Below are positions 27,201 through 62,172 of a DNA stretch of 64,000 nucleotides, one piece after another. The DNA is from Raja brachyura (taxonomy: Eukaryota). Both the position numbers and the translations under genes were made by a program. Within the stretch, counting starts at the first letter, position 1; each line of letters starts with the position of its first letter. The notes beneath the pieces were generated by a model. That model worked only from the letters and a program-made list of their open reading frames with translations. It did not search any database and had not been told where the DNA came from. The DNA lies in the NCBI GenBank assembly GCA_963514005.1, contig OY740790.1:56048001-56112000 (forward strand). Reading direction: 5' to 3'.

Positions 27201-28798
27201 ATCACATGCATAATGGTGATGTTTTCTCAAAGAAGTAATATGTATGAAGTAAATTATAATGGCTTAAGTGGCCACAACCTGAAATATTTGAATGATAAAT
27301 TGCATTTAAATTATTTAGTAACTTGATCACAACTAAAATGTCATAATGATATATTCTATTCAGGCATATTGCTTGTTATTGACTCTAAATTGCATTCATG
27401 GTGTATAAGGATTGGAGAATTCTAGTTATGGAAAAGCAAACAATGAATGACCTTCTTTTAAGAATGCAGACAATTTCTATTAAACTAAAACCGTAGTCAA
27501 TAGAAAAAGCATAGTTTTTTTAAAATAAAAGCTGTATTGTCCTTGAATTGATGAATGCCAATATTAATGTAAACTTTTTTTCTCTGTAGTTCATTTGGCG
27601 AATAATCTTGGTTTAAATTTGAAATGTAATAATGTCACACTATTATTTAAGGAAGGGGGGAGAGAGAAACCAAGTAATTCCAGGCCTGTCAGTTTAATGT
27701 CAGCATTCAGGAAGCTATTGGAATTTGTCTTTAGTTATAAAATGACAGAACTCTTGAAAAATATGAACTGATCACAGGGAATCAACATGATTCTGTAAGT
27801 CTGTAAGTCTTAAGTTCATACGTTATAAGAGGGGAATTCAGGCCATCAAGTCTACTCCGCCATTCAATCATGGCCTCTGAACCCCAGTTTCCTGCCTTCT
27901 CCCCACTAATTGTCTAATTAAGAATCTGTCAATCCCAACCTTAAAAATATTCATTGACTTGGCCCCCACAGCCCCCTGTGGCACTGAATTCCACAGATTC
28001 GCCACCCTCTCTAAATAAATTCCTTCTCATCTCCTTTCTGTACCGCTGTAGGTACAGAGTTTGTACGTTCTCCCCATGACCACGTGGGTTTTCTCTGGGT
28101 GCACAGGTTTCCTCTACTTTTTAAAGGTATGTTCCTTTTATTCTGAGGTCTTGGACTCTGGTCCTAGACTTTGCCACTCGTGGAAACATCCTCTCCACAT
28201 TCACTCTATCCAGGTCTTTCCTTATTCGGTAAATCTAGCTGTTTTCCTTTGAGGAGGTCATTATAGGACAGATATTGGAGTGGGAACACTGCTGAGTTAC
28301 CCCAGTTTTTTGTGTCTATCTTTTAGATAACAGAAAGTACAGTATCTCCTCTCAACAATGGCTGGGACATTCTCCATAGTAGTGCAGTAAGTGAGAAAAC
28401 ACACACACAAGTAATGTACATAAAGTAAATTTCAACCAAGCTGCAGGGTGCTCACTGGGTTTGATCAACAGGAGAATAACCTAATTGTCTCCACTCTGTT
28501 TGGGTGCAATGTTACCACTCATTTGGACATCCAAATTAAATTTGACATAGTTCCACAAACAAGTTTATGAACAAAAATAGGATTCTCTGCAACTCCTCTG
28601 ATAGCTTCCTCTGCCAGCTTGTTCCAGATATGGACTATCCTTTGAGTGAAAAAAGGATAGTGTGAATAGAGTGAAAAAAGTTGCTCGTAAGGTACCTCTT
28701 AAATCTCTCCCTTCTCACCTTAAGCCTATGCCCTTTAGTCTTAGTTTCTTCTACCCTCGAAAAAAGTCTATGAATGTTCACTTCATCCATGCCCCTTA

Positions 28799-29374
28799 AG
28801 GGCCTGTCCCACCAGCATGCGATTCCATGCGGTGAGCGCGACCAAACCGGCAGCGGGGGCCGCGCGGAGGTCGGGTGATCCCCGTACAGGGCCTGTCCCA
28901 CCAGCATGCACCTGCATGCGACAAGCGAGACCAAACCGGCAGAAGTGGCCGCGCAGAGGTCGGGTGAGTGGCGCAACGCGGCGCAAAGTGAGGCGAACTT
29001 GGAGCGAAGTCTTAAAGGTAAGTTCGAGGACAGAGAGGGACACATAGAGAGGGGCACAGAGGCACACACAGAGAGGGCCACGGAGCCACACACAGAGAGG
29101 GTCATGGAGGCACCTACAGATAGGTTCACGGAGGCACGATGTCGAGGCGGTGCGTAAGGTGTCGAGGCGACAGCGAGCCGACAAGCCGTTGCCGCGCGGA
29201 ATTTTTGAACATGGTCAGTTTTTCGGAGCCCCGCGCGATGTCGGGACGAACTCCGCACAATTCCGCACGGCTCCGGCGATCGAAGTGGGATCGGCCCCGC
29301 GACGCCGGACGGCTCAAGCAACCACGTTAGGTCGCGCTCATCGCATGGAGTTGCATGCTGGTGGGACAGGCCCT
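28799..29374. mobile_element. PIF/Harbinger-type MITE inserted in a minus-strand CR1 fragment
   Basis: Perfect TIR AGGGCCTGTCCCACCAGCATGC and TTA TSD. CpG-rich interior. An extra internal copy of the left terminus starts at 28888. Confidence 0.9.
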
Positions 29375-29414
29375 TTATGATTTTGTTTGCTCAATAAGGT
29401 CAGCCCACAGATTC

Positions 29415-29870
29415 AATACTATACAATACAATACAATACAATACAATAATATTTTATTAGCCAAGTATGTTTTGCCAAGCTCCCGATGTCGTTGGAGCTC
29501 CCAACATCTACAGTCTCTACCCGAGACTGCGAGCTCTCGATGGTAAAACCCGCGGTTGGAGCGATCTCAGGCATGAGATTGGCTCCGATGTTAAGTCCAC
29601 GCCCCACGGTGGGGCTCAAAGTCAGTCCGAGCAGGCCTCCAGCTCCAGGATGCTAGGCCATAGAGTGACCGGAGATACGATCCAGAAAACAATTGCATCT
29701 CCGGCAAGGTAAGAGATTGAAAAAAAAGTTTACCCCGACCCCCGACCCCCACATAAAACAAACCAGAGAACATTTACACAAACTTTTTAAACACACTAAA
29801 AATAACAAAAAAAGACAAAAAAACAGACAGACTGTTGGCGGGGCTGCCAATCGTGCGACGCCCCTGATGG
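29415..29870 (-). mobile_element. Non-autonomous retroelement, copy 2 (internally deleted relative to 18163-18933)
   Basis: Clear homology to copy 1. (CAATA)n at about 29415-29450. Confidence 0.65.
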
Positions 29871-34834: not shown

Positions 34835-35455
34835 AGTCAAAGTCAAGTCAAAAGAGTTTCTTGTCATGTGTCCCTGACAGGACAATGAAATTCTTTCCTT
34901 GCATAGCACAACAGAACATAGTAGGCATTGCCTACAATTATACACTTAAATACACACATGAATGAATAAATTGATAAAGTGCAAATAACAGATGGAGGGG
35001 TATTAATGTTCAGAGTTTTGTGCGAGCCATGTTTAATAGCCTGATAGCTATGGGGAAGTAGCTATTCCTGAACCTGGTCGTTGCAGTCCTCAGGCTCCTG
35101 TACCTTCTACCCGAAGGTAGCAGGGAGATGAGTGTGTGGCCAGGTGGTGTGGGTCCTTGATGATGCTGCCAGCATTTTTGAAGCAGCGACTGTGATAGAT
35201 CCCCTCGATGGAAGGAAGCTCAGAGCCATTGATGGACTGGGCAGTGTTTACTACTTTTTGTAGTCTTTTCCTCTCCAGGGCGCTCAAGTTGCCGAACCAA
35301 GTCACGATGAAACCGGTCAGCAGGCTCTCCACAGTGCACCTGTAGATGTTAGAGAGAGTCCTCCTTGACAGACCGACTCTCCGTAATCTTCTCAGGAAGT
35401 AGAGGCGCTGATGAGCTTTCTTAATAATTGCATCTGTGTTCTCGGACCTGGAGGG
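34835..35455 (-). mobile_element. Rex1/Babar-type LINE 3' fragment nested in a minus-strand HE1 SINE
   Basis: ESLLTGFIVTWFGN...RKRLQKVVNTAQSI.G..LPSI...SIIKDPHH. (AGTCA)n-like tail at about 34835. Confidence 0.85.
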
Positions 35456-35574
35456 ATCCGAGAAATTAACCTACAAATCTGTACGTTTTTGTAGTGTGGG
35501 AGAAAACCGGAGCACCTGGAGAAAACCCACGCAATCACAGGGATATTGTACAAACTCCATACAGGCAGTGTTTC

Positions 35575-36106: not shown

Positions 36107-36739
36107 CCCTGGTTAGGATCGAACCTGGATCTCTGGTGCTGTAAGGCAGCAAATCTACCAAAGAGCCACTGTGCTGTCCTCCTCTACATAATGTTTTCTA
36201 AGTTCTTTTAAATATGTTCTGCACGACTGGTACTTGCAGGATCTGTAAACGTTTTGGAGTTGCTGCCCAGCAAGGCAAATAACAGAAGTAGGTCTATCAA
36301 CAAAGGATTATTTGTTGAAGATAATGAGCAGCCGGCAAACTGCCTGGACTAGTACAACATTGTGACTAAAGTCATACCACATTACCTATACGAGGCTTAA
36401 AGAAACAGTCTCGACCCGAAACGTCATCCTTCACTCCATAGATGCTGCCTCACCCGCTGAGTTTCTCCAGTATATTTGTCTACCTTCGATTTTTCCAGCA
36501 TTTGCAGTTATTTCTTAAACAAAGAAACAGTCACTATCACATTTATGCCACACAGCTTGTCAAAGTAACAAAGCCCATGCATNNNNNNNNNNNNNNNNNN
36601 NNNNNNNNNNNNNNNNNNNNNNNNNNNNNNNNNNNNNNNNNNNNNNNNNNNNNNNNNNNNNNNNNNNNNNNNNNNNNNNNNNNNNNNNNNNNNNNNNNNN
36701 NNNNNNNNNNNNNNNNNNNNNNNNNNNNNNNNNNNNNNN

Positions 36740-38033
36740 TGATCTTGTGCTCTTCCGGTTTACGCAGTTTTTCTATTTGCGCAAATATGGTACACAATAG
36801 CACTACAATCTTTCGCCAGGCTACTCACCGTTCTCCCATGCTGTGAGTGCAACAAGTTTCCTTCCTATCGGTGGTATACTGTAAAAGATATCAAGGTTTA
36901 AAAATCTTTAAAAATGCACGTGCGCAGATTCCTTCAGTCAGCGCCACGCAGATTGGTCTCTTCTCCTGTCAGTCAATGCCACGGCCGGGATGGCGATGCC
37001 CCTTCCTGCCCCACTGGCGGCGGCCTGTCCCGTCTCACTCACAAACTCCTATCTCCCCTCCTCACAGTAACTTGTCACAGGCACAGTGGAGGCCCAGTGA
37101 AGACCCTGATCCCATCTCTCTATCCATCATCACTCACCCCTCTCCCCTGCCCACCCTCTGCGGCAATGGCGGTCCCGTCTACCCGTCCCCCGGGTCCGTC
37201 TCCTCCGCCGCCGCCGTTGCGGTAACTCACCCTCACGGCCTTCTAGGAGGAGATCTTCTCCACCAGCTCATCGAAACTTGTGGTGCCCACCGTGACGAAC
37301 ACCGATTCCATTCCCCCCCCTCCCCCCATGCGGCTCGGCAATGGCAGCAAGCAGGCAGGCAGGCAGGCGGGTGGGCAGGGTGGGGACGGGCCAAGCGGCA
37401 GCAACGGGCGGTCGGAAAGGACCGGGATGGGGCAAGTGGCAGCTGAGTCTGAGTGGGCAGAGAGAGGGAAGGAGAGTCGGGTAGCAGGGTGGCCGAGCAA
37501 TTTNNNNNNNNNNNNNNNNNNNNNNNNNNNNNNNNNNNNNNNNNNNNNNNNNNNNNNNNNNNNNNNNNNNNNNNNNNNNNNNNNNNNNNNNNNNNNNNNN
37601 NNNNNNNNNNNNNNNNNNNNNNNNNNNNNNNNNNNNNNNNNNNNNNNNNNCCAATCGTCACGTCAACGGGATCTAAACCACAGCTAATAATGAATGACCT
37701 ATGGAGGAAGGAACTGCAGGTGCTGCTTTTAATGGAGGGAGGTAGGGAGGGACTGAGCGTAGGGGAAAGGAGAGGGAGAGAGAAGTGTGGGAGGGATTGG
37801 GGGAGGGGAGGAGGAGAGGGGAACAAAGAGAGTGAAGAGGAGGGGGAGGGAGTGCTGGGGGATGAGGGGAAATGAGTCGTGCCTGTGCAGTTGGGGGCTA
37901 TGCGTGAGTGGTGGAATATTGCGTTGGGGGGACGGGTTGCGTTGGGGGTACATGTGAGTGGTGGAATATTGCATTGGGGAATGGGTTGCATTGGGGGCCA
38001 GGTCTCCCATGTGACAGGGACCACTAAGTCTAG
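36740..38033 (+). mobile_element. Non-autonomous Helitron-like element, copy 1 (5' end hidden in gap)
   Basis: Colinear with 44400-45908. Ends in GTCTAG (CTAG 38030-38033) followed by T. Internal N gap at 37504-37650. Confidence 0.8.
37231..37311 (-). pseudogene. ALG13: Captured ALG13 exon 1 coding fragment (27 codons, stop at codon 23) with GTGAGT donor
   Basis: Translates MESVFVTVGTTSFDELVEKISS*KAVR, then GTGAGT at 37230-37225. Matches the ALG13 N-terminus (human MKCVFVTVGTTSFDDL..., recalled from memory). Confidence 0.85.
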
Positions 38034-42012: not shown

Positions 42013-44387
42013 TAGAATTAAAGCCCGGTAAGTATTGGGTGCAAGGGCTGCTTTCCCCATTCAATAATTCCCCTCTGCTTTTGCTAAGGCTGCTCCCTGC
42101 TGTGATATTTGTTCCTAACAGTGAAGTGCATCATTCTTGTTCTTATCTCAGAATGATTGGGAATTGATGCAAACCTGGGACACAAGCCATGCAAGCGATA
42201 ACACAGAAGGTCGACGTGGAACATCATAAAACTGCTGAACACCAATTCTTGCTGACTGTTAACTGGATGTTCTCTTTCAATAAATCCCTTGCGCTGACCC
42301 TATGCTCTATCTTCTCCTTATCTGCCCCTAACTAACTCTCGGAAGCTGTGAAATATTGTACTTCAGTGATACCCATCTTTTCATTCCAAAACACGACACG
42401 CACTGATAAATCCAAGGGCAATGTGCTTTCATAATTATTCTATTATGTTCTCGGAGCCTGACATGGATTGTCCATGTATTCTGCTCTCTCTGCTTCAAGA
42501 AACTATGATAAACGGATCACTTTCTCTGGCTGACAGCTATTGCCTAACACCAAAAACAAGAACTGATTAGAGCACACTTCCTCGGGTATGTTCTGCGTTT
42601 TTTTTCCCTGCCTTCTTTAACTATTCCTCAGGAGGCCTTGGAATGCAGAGTAATGACCTAATCAGGGATAAAGGGTCATTGTGCCCTCTCGCTGTGATGA
42701 CAAAGACAGAGTAGAATTGGAATAATTTTATCTATTGTCGCATTACTGCCGCTAAAAAGAAATTTGAATTCACAGGTCATTTTCTGTTAATGTGCCACTG
42801 AAGTATGATATTTTAGTTTCAGTGCTGCAATCAATAAGGAGCCCAAAACTACATAAGATGTTCATTGTGTCTATATTTCAAGCTCGGTGTCTCTTTGGGG
42901 GAGGGGACTCAACATACAGCTAAAATAATTTGATTTAAATGTACATCATTTTGTGCAGTAGAACATCTCAATAAGTATGTTTAATTCTGCCTTGAACAGA
43001 GAATTAGATAAATTCTGCCGAACAGAGACTAAACTAAAAATCATTAAATTCACAGGGTTTTGTGAATTGTGAACGGACCTCACTCTGAAAACAAAAATAA
43101 GCAATTAATTTACGCCTGCCGCAACCTCTTCGAAAATATAGCTTGTATGGTTTAAATATTTGGAAATAAATCCTAAGGATACTTCCTGCCATATATCTTT
43201 ACAGAATTGCAATCACCATGGTAATGGCTGAGAAACTATTTTACCCAGTTACTGTGAAGAGTAATATTTGTAAGATTTCATCGATCTGTCAGCTGCCATA
43301 AGCATAAGTTTTATTTTGCATTTATGATAATACCAAAGCCAAAGATATTATAACGACAATGAAAATGTTGTAACATTCAGTGAACGCTCTCCGATGGCAA
43401 CTCAACTATATGGCTTCAGAACAAACTGAACAGCTCGCTGTCTGAAAGGTTTTACATTGCCCCCTTTAAGGATTGTCTCCAGATTAACTGATATTTATTA
43501 ATTGATGCAACACTGAGGCTAAGAGGCAGCATAATGTCTAGCAAGGAATTGTGGATGCTGGTTTGAACCGAAGATAGACACAAATAGCTGGAGAAACTCA
43601 GCGGATCAGATAGCATCTCTGGATAAAAGGAATAGGTGACGTTTCAGGTCGAGGCCCTTCTTGTGTCTTTTGGTGTCTATCTTCAGCATAATGTAGTGTA
43701 GGTCAGGTTTAGAAGAGAGTCTGAATGAATTATCACAGATGTGCGGGAAGGACCTGCTTCCTTAAACAGAGGATTGAGCAACTTGAAGGCTAGATCTAAA
43801 ATGATTCATAGAAGGTAGAGAGAGAGAGATAAGAAAAATGTTTACACCCGGGGCTAGTGGGGGGCCTGCAAAGGGGTTGGTACAGGCCAGAACCTCACAG
43901 AAACTTGGAAACATAGAAAATAGGTGCAGGAGTGGGCCATTCAGCTCTCTCTTTTTTATTCTTAAAAAAAAAAAAAAATTATTAGAAGCAATTGTACAAG
44001 AATAAGACGACCGACAACAGTTATACAATTATTGTACAGCTTCATTTTTAACCTTATAACCTAAATTTAAAAAAAAAAGAAAAAAGAAAAAAAAAGAAAA
44101 CAAAGAAAGAAGAAAAAAAAGTAAAATACAAAAGTGCAGGAAAAAGACCCCTAAGCCACCAAAAAAATCCAACTCTCTCTTGAAAACATCCAGTGAATTG
44201 GCCTCAACTGCCTTCTGTGGCAGAGAATTCCACAGAATCACAACTCTCTGGATGAAATGTTTTTCCTCATCTCAGTCCTAAATGCCCTACCCCTTATTCT
44301 TAAACTGTGACCCCTGGTTCTGGACTCCCCCAACATTGTGAACATTTTTCCTGCATCTAGCCTGTCCAATCCCTTAAGAATTTTATA

Positions 44388-45908
44388 TCTCTGAAACTCT
44401 GATCTTGTGTTCTTCTGGTGTGCGGGGTTTTTCTATTTGCGCAAAAATGGCACACGATAGCACTACGATTTTTCACCAGGTTACTCACCGTTCTCCTGTG
44501 CTGTGAGTGCAGCAAGTTTCGTTCCAATCGGTGGTATATTGCAAAAAGTTATCGAGATTTAAAAATCTTAAAAAGCGCGCGTGCGCAGATTCCTTCAGTC
44601 AGCACCATGCAGATTGGTCTCTTCTCCTGTTAGTCAATGCCACAGCCTGGATGGCGATGCCCCTTACTGCCCCATTGGTGGCGGCCTGTCCTGCCTCACT
44701 CACAAACTCCTCTCTCCCCTCCTCACTGTAACTTGTCTATCATCTTCCCTACCATCTGCAGTGGCCACAGGGCAGGTTCAGTGGAGGCCCTGGTCCCTTC
44801 TCTCTCTCCCTCATCACTCACCCCTCTCCCCTGCCCGCCTTCTGCGGCAATGGCGGTCCCGTCTACCCGTCCCCCCGGGTCCGTCTCTTCTGCCGCCGCC
44901 GGTGCGGTAACTCACCCTTGGAGGAGATCTTGGAGGAGATCTTCGCCACCAGCTCATCGAAACTCATGGTGCCCACCATGACGAACACCGACTCCATCCC
45001 CCCCACCTCTCTCCCTCGCGCCCGGAGGCGGGAGTGAGCAGGCAGGCCGGTAGGCGGGTGGGCAAGGGCGAGGACGGACTGAGCGGCAGCAGCGGTCGGA
45101 CAGGACGGGGACGGGCCGAGCGGCAACTGAGTCGGAGTGGGCAGAGGGAGGGAGGGAGAGTCGGGTTGCAGGGTGGCCGAGCAGTTTGCGCGGGGTTTGA
45201 GTAACTCACACACACACACACCCACACACACACACACAATACAAACTGGTCCAATTTCAAGTCAACGGGATCTAAAGCACAGCTAACAATGAATGACCTG
45301 TGGAGGAAGGAACTGCAGATGCTGCTTTTTATGGGTGGAGGGAGGGAGTGACTGAGGGTAGGGGAAAGGAGAGGGAGGGAGAGGTGACAGAGGGATTGGG
45401 GGAGGGGAGGAGGAGATGGGAAAGATCGTGGGGAGGTGAGGAAGAAGATGGGGGGGTTGAGGGAGAGGAAGGGGTAGGGAGGGAGAGAGGGGTAGTGGGG
45501 GAAGTGAGGAGACTGGGGGAGGAGTGGAAATAGAGGGAGAGGAGGGCAGTGGGGGAGGTGAGGAGTGGGGGAGGTGGGGGATAGTAGGGGGTAGGGAGGG
45601 GAAAGATCGAGGGAGGGAATAACAGGGTAGGGAAAAGGAGAAGGAGGGAGAGGTGAGGGAGGGATTGGGGGAGGGGAGGAGGAGAGGGGAAAGAAGAGGG
45701 AGGGTTAAGAGGAGAGGGAGCGAGTGCTGGGGATTGAGGGGAAATGAGCCATGCCTGCGCAGTTTGGGTCTATGCGTGAGTGGTGCATTATTGCGTTGGG
45801 AGGACGGGTAACATTGGGGGAACGGGTGAGTGGTGGAATATTGCATTGGGGAACGGGTTGCGTTGGGGGACCAGGCCTCCCATGTGACAAGGACCCAACT
45901 TAGTCTAG
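44388..45908 (+). mobile_element. Non-autonomous Helitron-like element, copy 2 (both ends visible, 1521 bp)
   Basis: Begins TC (44388), ends CTAG (45905-45908), lies between A44387 and T45909, with no TSD and no TIR. No intact 3' hairpin is visible. Confidence 0.88.
44916..44997 (-). pseudogene. ALG13: Captured ALG13 exon 1 fragment, copy 2
   Basis: MESVFVMVGTMSFDELVAKISSKISSK with a 12-bp tandem duplication (KISS twice) and a deletion relative to copy 1. GTGAGT at 44915-44910. Confidence 0.8.
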
Positions 45909-46071
45909 TGTTTCTATAAGATCCCCTCTCATCCTTCTAAATTTCAGTGAATACAAACCAGTGAATACAAAATTCCAGTGAATCAGAAAGAAGCAGTATT
46001 TTGAGGTGCTTGTGAAGAAACCTGGACCTGGTTTTGGAAGGTAGCATAGACATGATAGGCTGTCTTTATTG

Positions 46072-50144: not shown

Positions 50145-51491
50145 CAAAGATTATAGAGGAGCAAGATGCGCCACTCAGTGGAAATCCAATGGACTGGTGT
50201 GTAGTACGTAACGGAACGTCACGGCCGCCATTTTGGCGGACTGCCTCCCCATGTGTAATCCGCTCCAACGCTACAGAGCAGTTGCAAGCAAAGATTACAA
50301 AGATTATAGAGGAGCAAGATGCATTAGAAAGTTATTAGATTTATTTGTAATAGATCTTTACTTACCTCTCGATCCCTCTCTCTCCCCCTCTCGATCCCTC
50401 TTTCTCTCGATCTTTCTCTCCCTCTCTTTCGATCTCCCTCTCTTCTCTCTCTCCCCTCGATCCCTCTCTCCTCTATCTTCTCTCGATCTCCCTCCCTACC
50501 CTCCCCTCTCCCCCTCCTTCCCTCTCCCCCTCCTTCCCTCTCTCTCTCCCCCTCCCTTTTCCCCCTGTTCCCCCATTTCCCTCGCATCTTTCCTCCCCAG
50601 CCCCTCCTTTGAGTAGTTTACCTTGCATTGTACAGCTTCCCTTGTATTGCTTTAACACACACTGTGCACAGAATTACAGGCACACACAAACACACATTCA
50701 TATAAATATATGGTGGGACAGATAGAAGCAAATCTTTGGATAGAAGAGCTTATTAAAATCTTCCTACGAAGACCATTATGTAATTTATTTCTATCCTCTT
50801 TTGGGCCTAAGGCATAGCAGGGCTGCCAATGGGAGGGAGCAAGGGAGAGAGGGAAATCGAGAAGAGAGGGGAGAGAGATAGATCGAGAGCGGAGAGAAAG
50901 AGATCGAGAGGGGAGAGAAAGAGTTCGAGAGGGGAGAGAAAGAGTTCGAGAGGGGAGAGAAAGAGATCGAGAGGGGAGAGAAAGAGTTCGAGAGGGGAGA
51001 GAAAGAGTTCGAGAGGGGAGAGAAAGAGTTTGAGGGGGAGAGAAAGAGTTCGAGAGGGGAGAGAAAGAGTTCGAGAGGGGAGAGAAAGAGTTCGAGAGGG
51101 GAGAGAAAGAGTTCGAGGGGGAGAGAAAGAGTTCGACAGGGGAGAGAGAGCGATCGAGAGGGGAGAGAGAGCGATAGAAAGAAGAGAGGGTGAGCGAGAG
51201 AAGAGAGGGGATAGAGAGGGATCGAGAGGTAAGTAAAGATCTATTACAAATAAATCTAATAACTTTCTAATGCATCTTGCTCCTCTATAATCTTTGCTTG
51301 CAACTGCTCTGTAGCTTTGGAGCGGATTACTGAGCGGGAGATCGAGAGACAAAGATCATAGAGAAGCTCAGTTTCCCAGCAGACGCCATAGTCGACGCCA
51401 TCTCTGGTCCGCTAATATGGCGTCGACAATCACACACGTGATACTACGCCTTTTCCACTTAGTGGCGCATCTTGCTCCTCTATAATCTTTG
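50145..51491. mobile_element. Non-autonomous P-element-like foldback transposon
   Basis: 40-bp TIR CAAAGATTATAGAGGAGCAAGATGCGCCACTCAGTGGAAA (39/40 match). Perfect 8-bp TSD GTCGTGAG (50137-50144, 51492-51499). CAWRG terminus. Superfamily is inferred. Confidence 0.8.
50880..51140 (+). repeat. 21-bp minisatellite (AGTTCGAGAGGGGAGAGAAAG)n inside the P-like element
   Basis: About 12 near-identical tandem units are visible. Confidence 0.9.
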
Positions 51492-61694: not shown

Positions 61695-62172
61695 ACAACT
61701 GGCCTCCACTGCCCTCTGAGGCAGAGAGTTCCACAGACTCACAACTCTCTGTGTGAAAAAATGTTTCCTCATCACCATTCTAAATGGCTTGGCCCTTATT
61801 CTTAAACGGAGGTCCCTAGTTCTGGACTCCCCCAACATTGGGCCCTTGTTTCCTGCCTCTAGTGTGTCCAAAACCTTAATAATCTTATATGTTTCAATAA
61901 GATCCCCTCTCATCCTTCTAAACTCCAGAGTGTACAAGCCCAGCTGCTCCATTCTCTCAACATATGACAGTCCCGCCACCCCGGGAATTTACGTTGTGAA
62001 CCATGCTGCAGTCACTCTCCAACACCAACATGTCCTTCCTCAGATATGGGGCCCAAAACTGCTCACAATACAGTCTGTATTGCAGTCTATAAATGCAGTC
62101 TGACCAGTGCCTTATAAAGCCTTTGCATCCCATTCCTGTTTTATACACTAGTCCTCTTGAAATAAATGCTCT
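61695..62172 (-). mobile_element. CR1 ORF2 3' fragment
   Basis: GLSYVERMEQLGLYTLEFRRMRGDLIETYKII...RVVSLWNSLPQ. Confidence 0.9.

Follow-up and report, generated by a model that had tools for sequence, protein, structure and literature searches.

A non-coding Helitron-type repeat of Raja brachyura probably carries a DNA-captured ALG13 exon 1 with its splice donor

In the present study, we analyzed a 64,000-nt stretch of the Raja brachyura genome (assembly GCA_963514005.1, contig OY740790.1, positions 56,048,001 to 56,112,000 of the forward strand; hereafter, the window) and found ALG13 exon 1, together with its splice donor, as the cargo of a non-coding Helitron-type repeat that was present in two copies (A and B). 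According to our analysis, the 5′ end of skate alg13 was likely taken as DNA and the element was likely spread by a RepHel transposase, while both copies are broken, and it is likely that they are decaying and have no role. We assign this reading a probability of about 0.8. The capture of exon 1 with its donor at the DNA level appears well supported by the sequence comparisons, and the flanks are putatively homologous to the native intron and promoter.

The original prediction described 81 nt (27 codons) running from an ATG at 37311 to an AGG/GTGAGT donor, and our results confirmed this arrangement on the minus strand. The coding part of exon 1 in copy A occupied 37231..37311, antisense to the element, and was followed by a GTGAGT donor (37225..37230, minus strand) at the putative native exon 1/intron 1 boundary. 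Its translation was identical to the ALG13 protein of the little skate (Leucoraja, P0002) at 24 of the 27 residues, and only 3 of the 18 residues past the donor (residues 28–45) were identical, indicating that the similarity ended at the donor. We fetched 82 proteins, left out 21 that lacked the anchor motif, and scored the remaining 61 ALG13 homologues. Leucoraja was the best of these (24/27) and the next best score was 21; over the same 27 residues, three other batoids reached 20–21, six sharks 18–20, and platypus 21. Past the donor, none of the 61 exceeded 5 of 18 residues. The coding part of human ALG13 exon 1 presumably also comprises 27 codons. The profile match of the copy A exon peptide to PF04101 was weak (E 0.13), the copy B exon peptide gave no match in the Pfam profile search, and a PDB search with a 22-aa exon peptide gave none. 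With the two strands of the window taken together, 72 of approximately 128,000 positions carried GTRAGT, a frequency of 0.00056 per position, and a donor at the end of homology was therefore not expected by chance. An extra in-frame ATG was observed at 37329, 18 nt upstream of the ALG13 start, in copy A only and was absent from copy B.

On the minus strand of copy A, the exon was flanked by GC-rich sequence on both sides. The sequence after the donor (37117..37230) is likely the start of ALG13 intron 1, with its limit lying between about 36990 and 37230, and the stretch upstream of the ATG (37312..37503), which is common to copy B and is cut by an N gap, is likely the 5′ UTR and proximal promoter. 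In copy B, also on the minus strand, the exon (44916..44997) was 82 nt long and frameshifted, with a GTGAGT donor at 44910..44915 and an upstream GC-rich sequence (44998..45238) that ended in a CA repeat (45207-45238).

The carrier was an element of 1.3–1.5 kb on the plus strand. Copy A (36740..38033) was 83–90% identical to copy B in three blocks and ended with CTAG (38030..38033) followed by T, where the similarity to copy B stopped. Its first approximately 12 nt, including the 5′ end, fell inside an N gap (36583-36739), and a second N gap (37504-37650) lay within it; the window contained no other N gaps, and both affect copy A, the first at the 5′ end and the second at the place of the CA repeat of copy B. 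Copy B (44388..45908) was complete, running from a 5′ TC (44388) to a 3′ CTAG (45905-45908) between A (44387) and T (45909), and it split an older interspersed repeat into a left half (44167..44387, plus strand) and a right half (45909-45960). Four paralogous repeats were continuous across 44387/45909, providing empty sites at 61889/61890, 33502/33501, 22240/22239, and 11420/11422. Since these paralogues run straight across the site without the insert, the limits of the insert were fixed at 44388-45908, and the four empty sites indicated that copy B entered an A/T site and duplicated no target sequence. In the excerpts of PMC4778049 used here, TC and CTAG ends and an A/T target are given as Helitron hallmarks, and the 3′ palindrome is described as not absolutely required. 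An imperfect inverted repeat with a 6-bp stem (38001..38022, plus strand), which stopped 11 nt short of the 3′ terminus of copy A, may be a decayed terminator hairpin; in the two copies compared, both of them aged, the subterminal hairpin folded no better than shuffles (z 0.33 for copy A and 1.76 for copy B). The element frames of at least 70 aa gave no Pfam match; thus, the element would be non-autonomous. No RepHel partner was observed. Short predicted proteins from the element were looked for and none were found. Many loose contig ends at 36929-36935 and 36971 resembled the stretch 36920-36990, so that a variable tandem subrepeat is likely in this part of the family.

The element was also detected in public sequencing runs. 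Part of copy B was found in 20 of the 21 listed public runs, representing 8 organism labels, and the copy B share was at least 0.23 in 17 of these runs (7 organism labels); three small-share runs were counted only where contigs were aligned (X18, X20), and none of the runs listed as containing the element was labelled as RNA. At 80% likeness, 3736 contigs of run X1 and 5606 contigs of run X11 matched the 764-nt stretch 36740-37503, most of them less than 95% alike, and one variant inside the exon (37279) was common to 101 contigs of X1 and 111 of X11. These results showed that many diverged copies of the element exist. The summed depth over the exon in X1 was approximately 8000, compared with 4–12 for single contigs, which would fit around a thousand copies, a summed contig depth being no copy number. 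A depth hole at 37340-37384 was an artefact of skipped repeats and was not read as biology. We infer that the capture took place in the skate lineage from the skate-type residues of the exon, one skate protein having been compared. In run X20, which is probably RNA, a 1948-nt contig (depth 88) carried a different 154-nt middle that replaced 36949-37116, and this variant shared 37117-37317 with copy A. It represents a second subfamily, possibly inside a transcript.

The position of the native exon junction was addressed by two contigs of run X18, which stopped matching exactly at 37231; the RNA status of this run was guessed, and its organism label differs from that of the best holder. The blended continuation of the two contigs comprised 30 letters with an agreement of 0.62, as expected for two unrelated continuations. 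Given a tie rule under which the alphabetically first letter is reported, the blend was compatible with all 10 codons of native ALG13 residues 28–37; this rule was deduced, and the letter counts (15 A, 10 C, 3 G, and 2 T) fit it. As controls, random blends gave the same fit in 354 of 100,000 cases and shuffles in 456 of 100,000; among other ALG13 10-mers, 76 of 3168 did so. Accordingly, one X18 contig is likely to represent native exon 1 spliced to exon 2, and since the blend fits native exon 2, native alg13 intron 1 likely starts at this very donor base (37231/37230). Among the run contigs listed, there was no identifiable contig of native alg13 DNA, and an exon-derived pattern had no matches in metagenome contigs.

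It had been proposed that the cassette stands out as CpG-dense sequence in a CpG-poor window. The enrichment itself was observed: 37140-37503 contained 27 CpG in 364 nt, with an observed/expected ratio of 0.67 versus 0.40 for the whole window. The upstream flank of copy A (37312-37503) was 69% GC with 11 CpG and a ratio of 0.53 alone, its donor-side part (37140-37230) also held 11 CpG, and the upstream sequence of copy B (44998-45200) was 72% GC with 20 CpG. However, this richness was not special to the cassette, because the ratio of the element's own 5′ part (36741-37139) was also 0.67 and a 200-nt CpG-island-style scan of the window yielded 14 CpG-rich patches. Of these, the richest patch, at 28691-29430 (61 CpG, ratio 0.99), lay in an unrelated element. 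CpG density therefore does not demonstrate capture, and we rejected it as proof. The position 37140 failed as the edge of the cassette, as the similarity between copies A and B continued to the gap at 36740. With regard to other elements of the window, the CpG-rich element of the richest patch, at 28797-29378, had terminal inverted repeats of approximately 25 nt, TAA/TTA-like flanking triplets, and an internal 89-nt duplication; it looks like a non-autonomous cut-and-paste transposon, which we take to be PIF/Harbinger-like. Inverted arms of 90 nt at 50298-51296, 99% complementary and 819 nt apart, enclosed a region with a CT-rich tract on one strand and a 21-nt purine-rich tandem array on the other, and this is likely a young foldback-type element.

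Both exon copies were damaged. An in-frame TAG was present at codon 23 of copy A (37243..37245, minus strand), and the last codons of copy B were replaced by a 12-nt tandem duplication (44917-44943). Because of this stop in copy A and the frameshift and duplication in copy B, neither could give a normal ALG13 N-terminus. With a CpG position defined as a CpG in either copy, which inflates the contrast between CpG and non-CpG positions, the two copies differed at 39 of 143 CpG positions versus 115 of 999 other positions (p = 2.5e-6); within the captured part only, the differences amounted to 15 of 71 versus 32 of 301 (p = 0.027). This excess is as expected for germline methylation decay. At codon 11 (37279 in copy A and 44965 in copy B), copy A differed from most matching contigs, and relative to this majority the two copies were changed at opposite bases of one CpG, a pattern of independent CpG decay on both strands. 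Divergence was lower in the donor-side block (37117-37230 in copy A and 44800-44915 in copy B), where 7 of 114 columns differed compared with 147 of 1028 elsewhere (p = 0.014, post hoc) and 2 of 24 CpG positions had changed. Chance, mosaic subfamilies, or constraint may each account for this low divergence.

The original prediction further suggested that each insertion could seed chimeric transcripts. Such an effect is of a known kind, having been shown for HelibatN3 and NUBPL, but it was not borne out for copies A and B, in which both exons are broken, CpG decay has occurred, and a coarse scan revealed no host gene. This Pfam scan covered 227 of the 228 stop-to-stop frames of at least 70 aa in the window (one frame starting in an N gap was left out), and it detected no host gene beyond PF09004; exons shorter than 70 codons escape such a scan, so an intronic position of the copies stays compatible with it. 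The PF09004 (ALKBH8_N) match at 35093-35470 (E 4e-11) was the only one above the cut-off, with three weak matches below it. Reverse transcriptase frames of the LINE type presumably often end in this domain, and 35093-35470 is likely a retroelement piece.

Among the alternatives to plain decay, the strongest holds that the family is a working exon trap, in which many copies keep the ALG13-derived promoter and splice from the donor into host exons. The donors are intact in both copies, the reduced divergence of the donor-side sequence described above would suit this possibility, and exon trapping has been shown for the bat element HelibatN3, as reported in the excerpted text of PMC4778049. The expected trace would be reads spliced from 37231 to downstream exons. 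Both X18 contigs broke at that base; one probably continues into native exon 2, and the other, which leaves 37231 into sequence unlike the first, is one unproven hint that may equally reflect native alternative splicing, genomic truncation, or misassembly. Exon bins were approximately 6-fold above the intron-side bins in X18 and approximately 1.6-fold in the DNA run X11, which carries the same organism label; native mRNA also explains this excess, however, which contig depth measures poorly. The 1948-nt contig of X20 carries the cassette unspliced and counts against plain decay, contigs giving neither strand nor transcript start. In addition to the broken exons of the window, the CpG decay reaches the captured part, a weak search found no chimeric protein among 5 matches of 66 candidates, and, according to the part of PMC4778049 considered, the bat insertions gave only 3 transcripts starting inside them. 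Taken together, we regard a working exon trap as unlikely, though less so than the other alternatives. In its widest form, a skate Helitron family would have spread the alg13 promoter, exon 1, and donor to approximately a thousand sites, some of which would splice into host exons and have rewired skate genes, as an independent replay of the bat exon trap in a fish lineage. We consider this scenario doubtful; its first traces would be the conserved donor-side sequence and the second X18 contig at the donor.

A second functional alternative, also raised in the original prediction, is an effect in trans, in which small RNAs that silence the element would act on alg13 exon 1 or the alg13 promoter as well. 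Many copies at 80–99% identity and an exon lying antisense to the element would suit such an effect, and an epigenetic-conflict model is discussed in the sections of PMC12001565 consulted. On the other side, an Rfam search over 44300-46000 (copy B) returned no matches, and the X18 contig was compatible with a normally spliced native mRNA, so we consider an effect in trans improbable. Decay of both copies without a role remains the reading that we prefer.

The arrangement of the element points to how the capture may have occurred. Along the element, the 5′ part was followed by the intron side, the exon, the upstream sequence, the CA repeat, a purine-rich tract, and the 3′ end. Based on this succession, with the intron side and the exon read as alg13 intron 1 and exon 1, we propose a read-through starting from intron 1. 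The Helitron 5′ end would have lain antisense in alg13 intron 1, and rolling-circle copying would have run through exon 1 and the promoter and stopped at a later terminator, a route that we slightly favor over capture by repair or template switching. Bypass of the 3′ end has been shown for Helraiser in the portion of PMC4778049 examined. The chimeric element would subsequently have spread through the action of a RepHel transposase supplied from elsewhere. By analogy with the bat HelibatN3, copies inserted into an intron in the matching orientation are predicted to act as exon traps, though this would apply to a minority of insertions.

DNA-level capture is likely because a consensus donor marks the end of the protein similarity, the X18 contigs break there, and the fragment lacks exon 2, a poly(A) tract, and a flanking duplication. 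The proposal of a DNA-level first-exon cassette was thus upheld as to the donor at the end of homology, the Helitron ends, the empty sites, and the X18 breaks, but its CpG argument failed and both exons are broken. The point that the retained donor argues against a retrocopy was likewise upheld, as no exon 2 follows codon 27, the donor is kept, and no poly(A) stands beside the fragment. A different RNA route, in which an alg13 transcript that had not been spliced, or had retained an intron, entered the element by reverse transcription or as the template for repair, deserves separate consideration. The upstream part seen (about 190–210 nt) could be 5′ UTR only, and retroposed mRNAs occur inside bat Helitrons according to the sections of PMC4224331 available to us. 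Nevertheless, the missing exon 2, poly(A), and duplication also weigh against this route. LINE-type retrocopies are truncated at the 5′ end and retain the 3′ end, and the fragment, which keeps the 5′ end, shows the reverse. We therefore judge an RNA route to be quite improbable.

Even less probable, in our view, is that only the exon derives from ALG13, with the GC-rich flanks belonging to the element itself and the donor having arisen by chance. The 5′ part of the element is as CpG-rich as the cassette (ratio 0.67) and holds 7–8 donor-like hexamers on its minus strand, which would be consistent with this explanation. Against it, the donor stands at the exact codon where the protein similarity ends, the approximately 6 GTRAGT-type sites per 1.3–1.5 kb give a chance of less than 1% at one given base, and the X18 contigs break at the same base. 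Finally, a processed retrocopy was rejected, given the absence of exon 2 (at most 5 of 18 residues), the kept donor, and the lack of poly(A) and flanking duplication, and the native alg13 locus itself was rejected, given no exon 2 nearby, the Helitron ends, and two broken copies.

Previous studies have reported comparable captures in other vertebrates. In the parts of PMC4224331 considered, HelibatN3 of Myotis lucifugus is described as a non-autonomous element of about 1 kb that carries the NUBPL promoter, 5′ UTR, exon 1, and the start of intron 1 in the "−" orientation, with 2745 copies (Table S2). Exon trapping by HelibatN3 was shown in HeLa cells, and 3 bat transcripts start inside its insertions (PMC4778049, in excerpt). 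The ALG13 element resembles HelibatN3, as far as these excerpts describe it, in its start codon and splice donor, antisense cargo, TC/CTAG ends, and A/T target. It differs in the gene and the length of the coding piece (ALG13, 27 codons, versus NUBPL, 6 codons) and in the host (likely skates versus bats). Moreover, promoter activity and trapping have been shown for HelibatN3, whereas the ALG13 copies are known from sequence, with both exons broken; native homology has been mapped for the bat elements, whereas the ALG13 flanks were assigned from the sequence of the element. The available sections of PMC4224331 also report a bias of bat Helitron captures to 5′ gene ends, with such elements reaching higher copy number, and further first-exon captures (HelibatN217.1-TMBIM4, HelibatN211-SRPK1, and HelibatN301-STK24). 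These belong to one mammalian family, and the bias to 5′ gene ends is a likeness to the ALG13 element. In Xenopus laevis, Heli1Xen1 is reported in the passages of PMC12001565 consulted to comprise non-autonomous Helitrons with host coding fragments, a cross-species skew to 5′ exons is noted, and the capture is described as rare and little amplified. Compared with this description, the ALG13 family looks abundant and is common to several organism labels. In the literature searched, we found no report of a Helitron with ALG13 or of such a capture in skates or cartilaginous fish, a family that Repbase or Dfam may catalogue; ALG13 was absent from the 4 bat supplementary files searched (PMC4224331). 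The portable first-exon cassette is thus of an already published kind, and the ALG13 case in skates is new as far as the literature searched.

Helitron capture of promoters and first exons, together with the higher copy number of the elements concerned, has been documented mainly in vesper bats, and an abundant skate family of this design would add a case that arose independently in a vertebrate lineage far from bats. With such a family, one could ask whether a CpG-rich gene start favors the spread of a Helitron and how often its copies start host transcripts. In skate genomes, the many look-alikes of ALG13 exon 1 can lead to errors in gene annotation, read mapping, and the calling of CpG islands.
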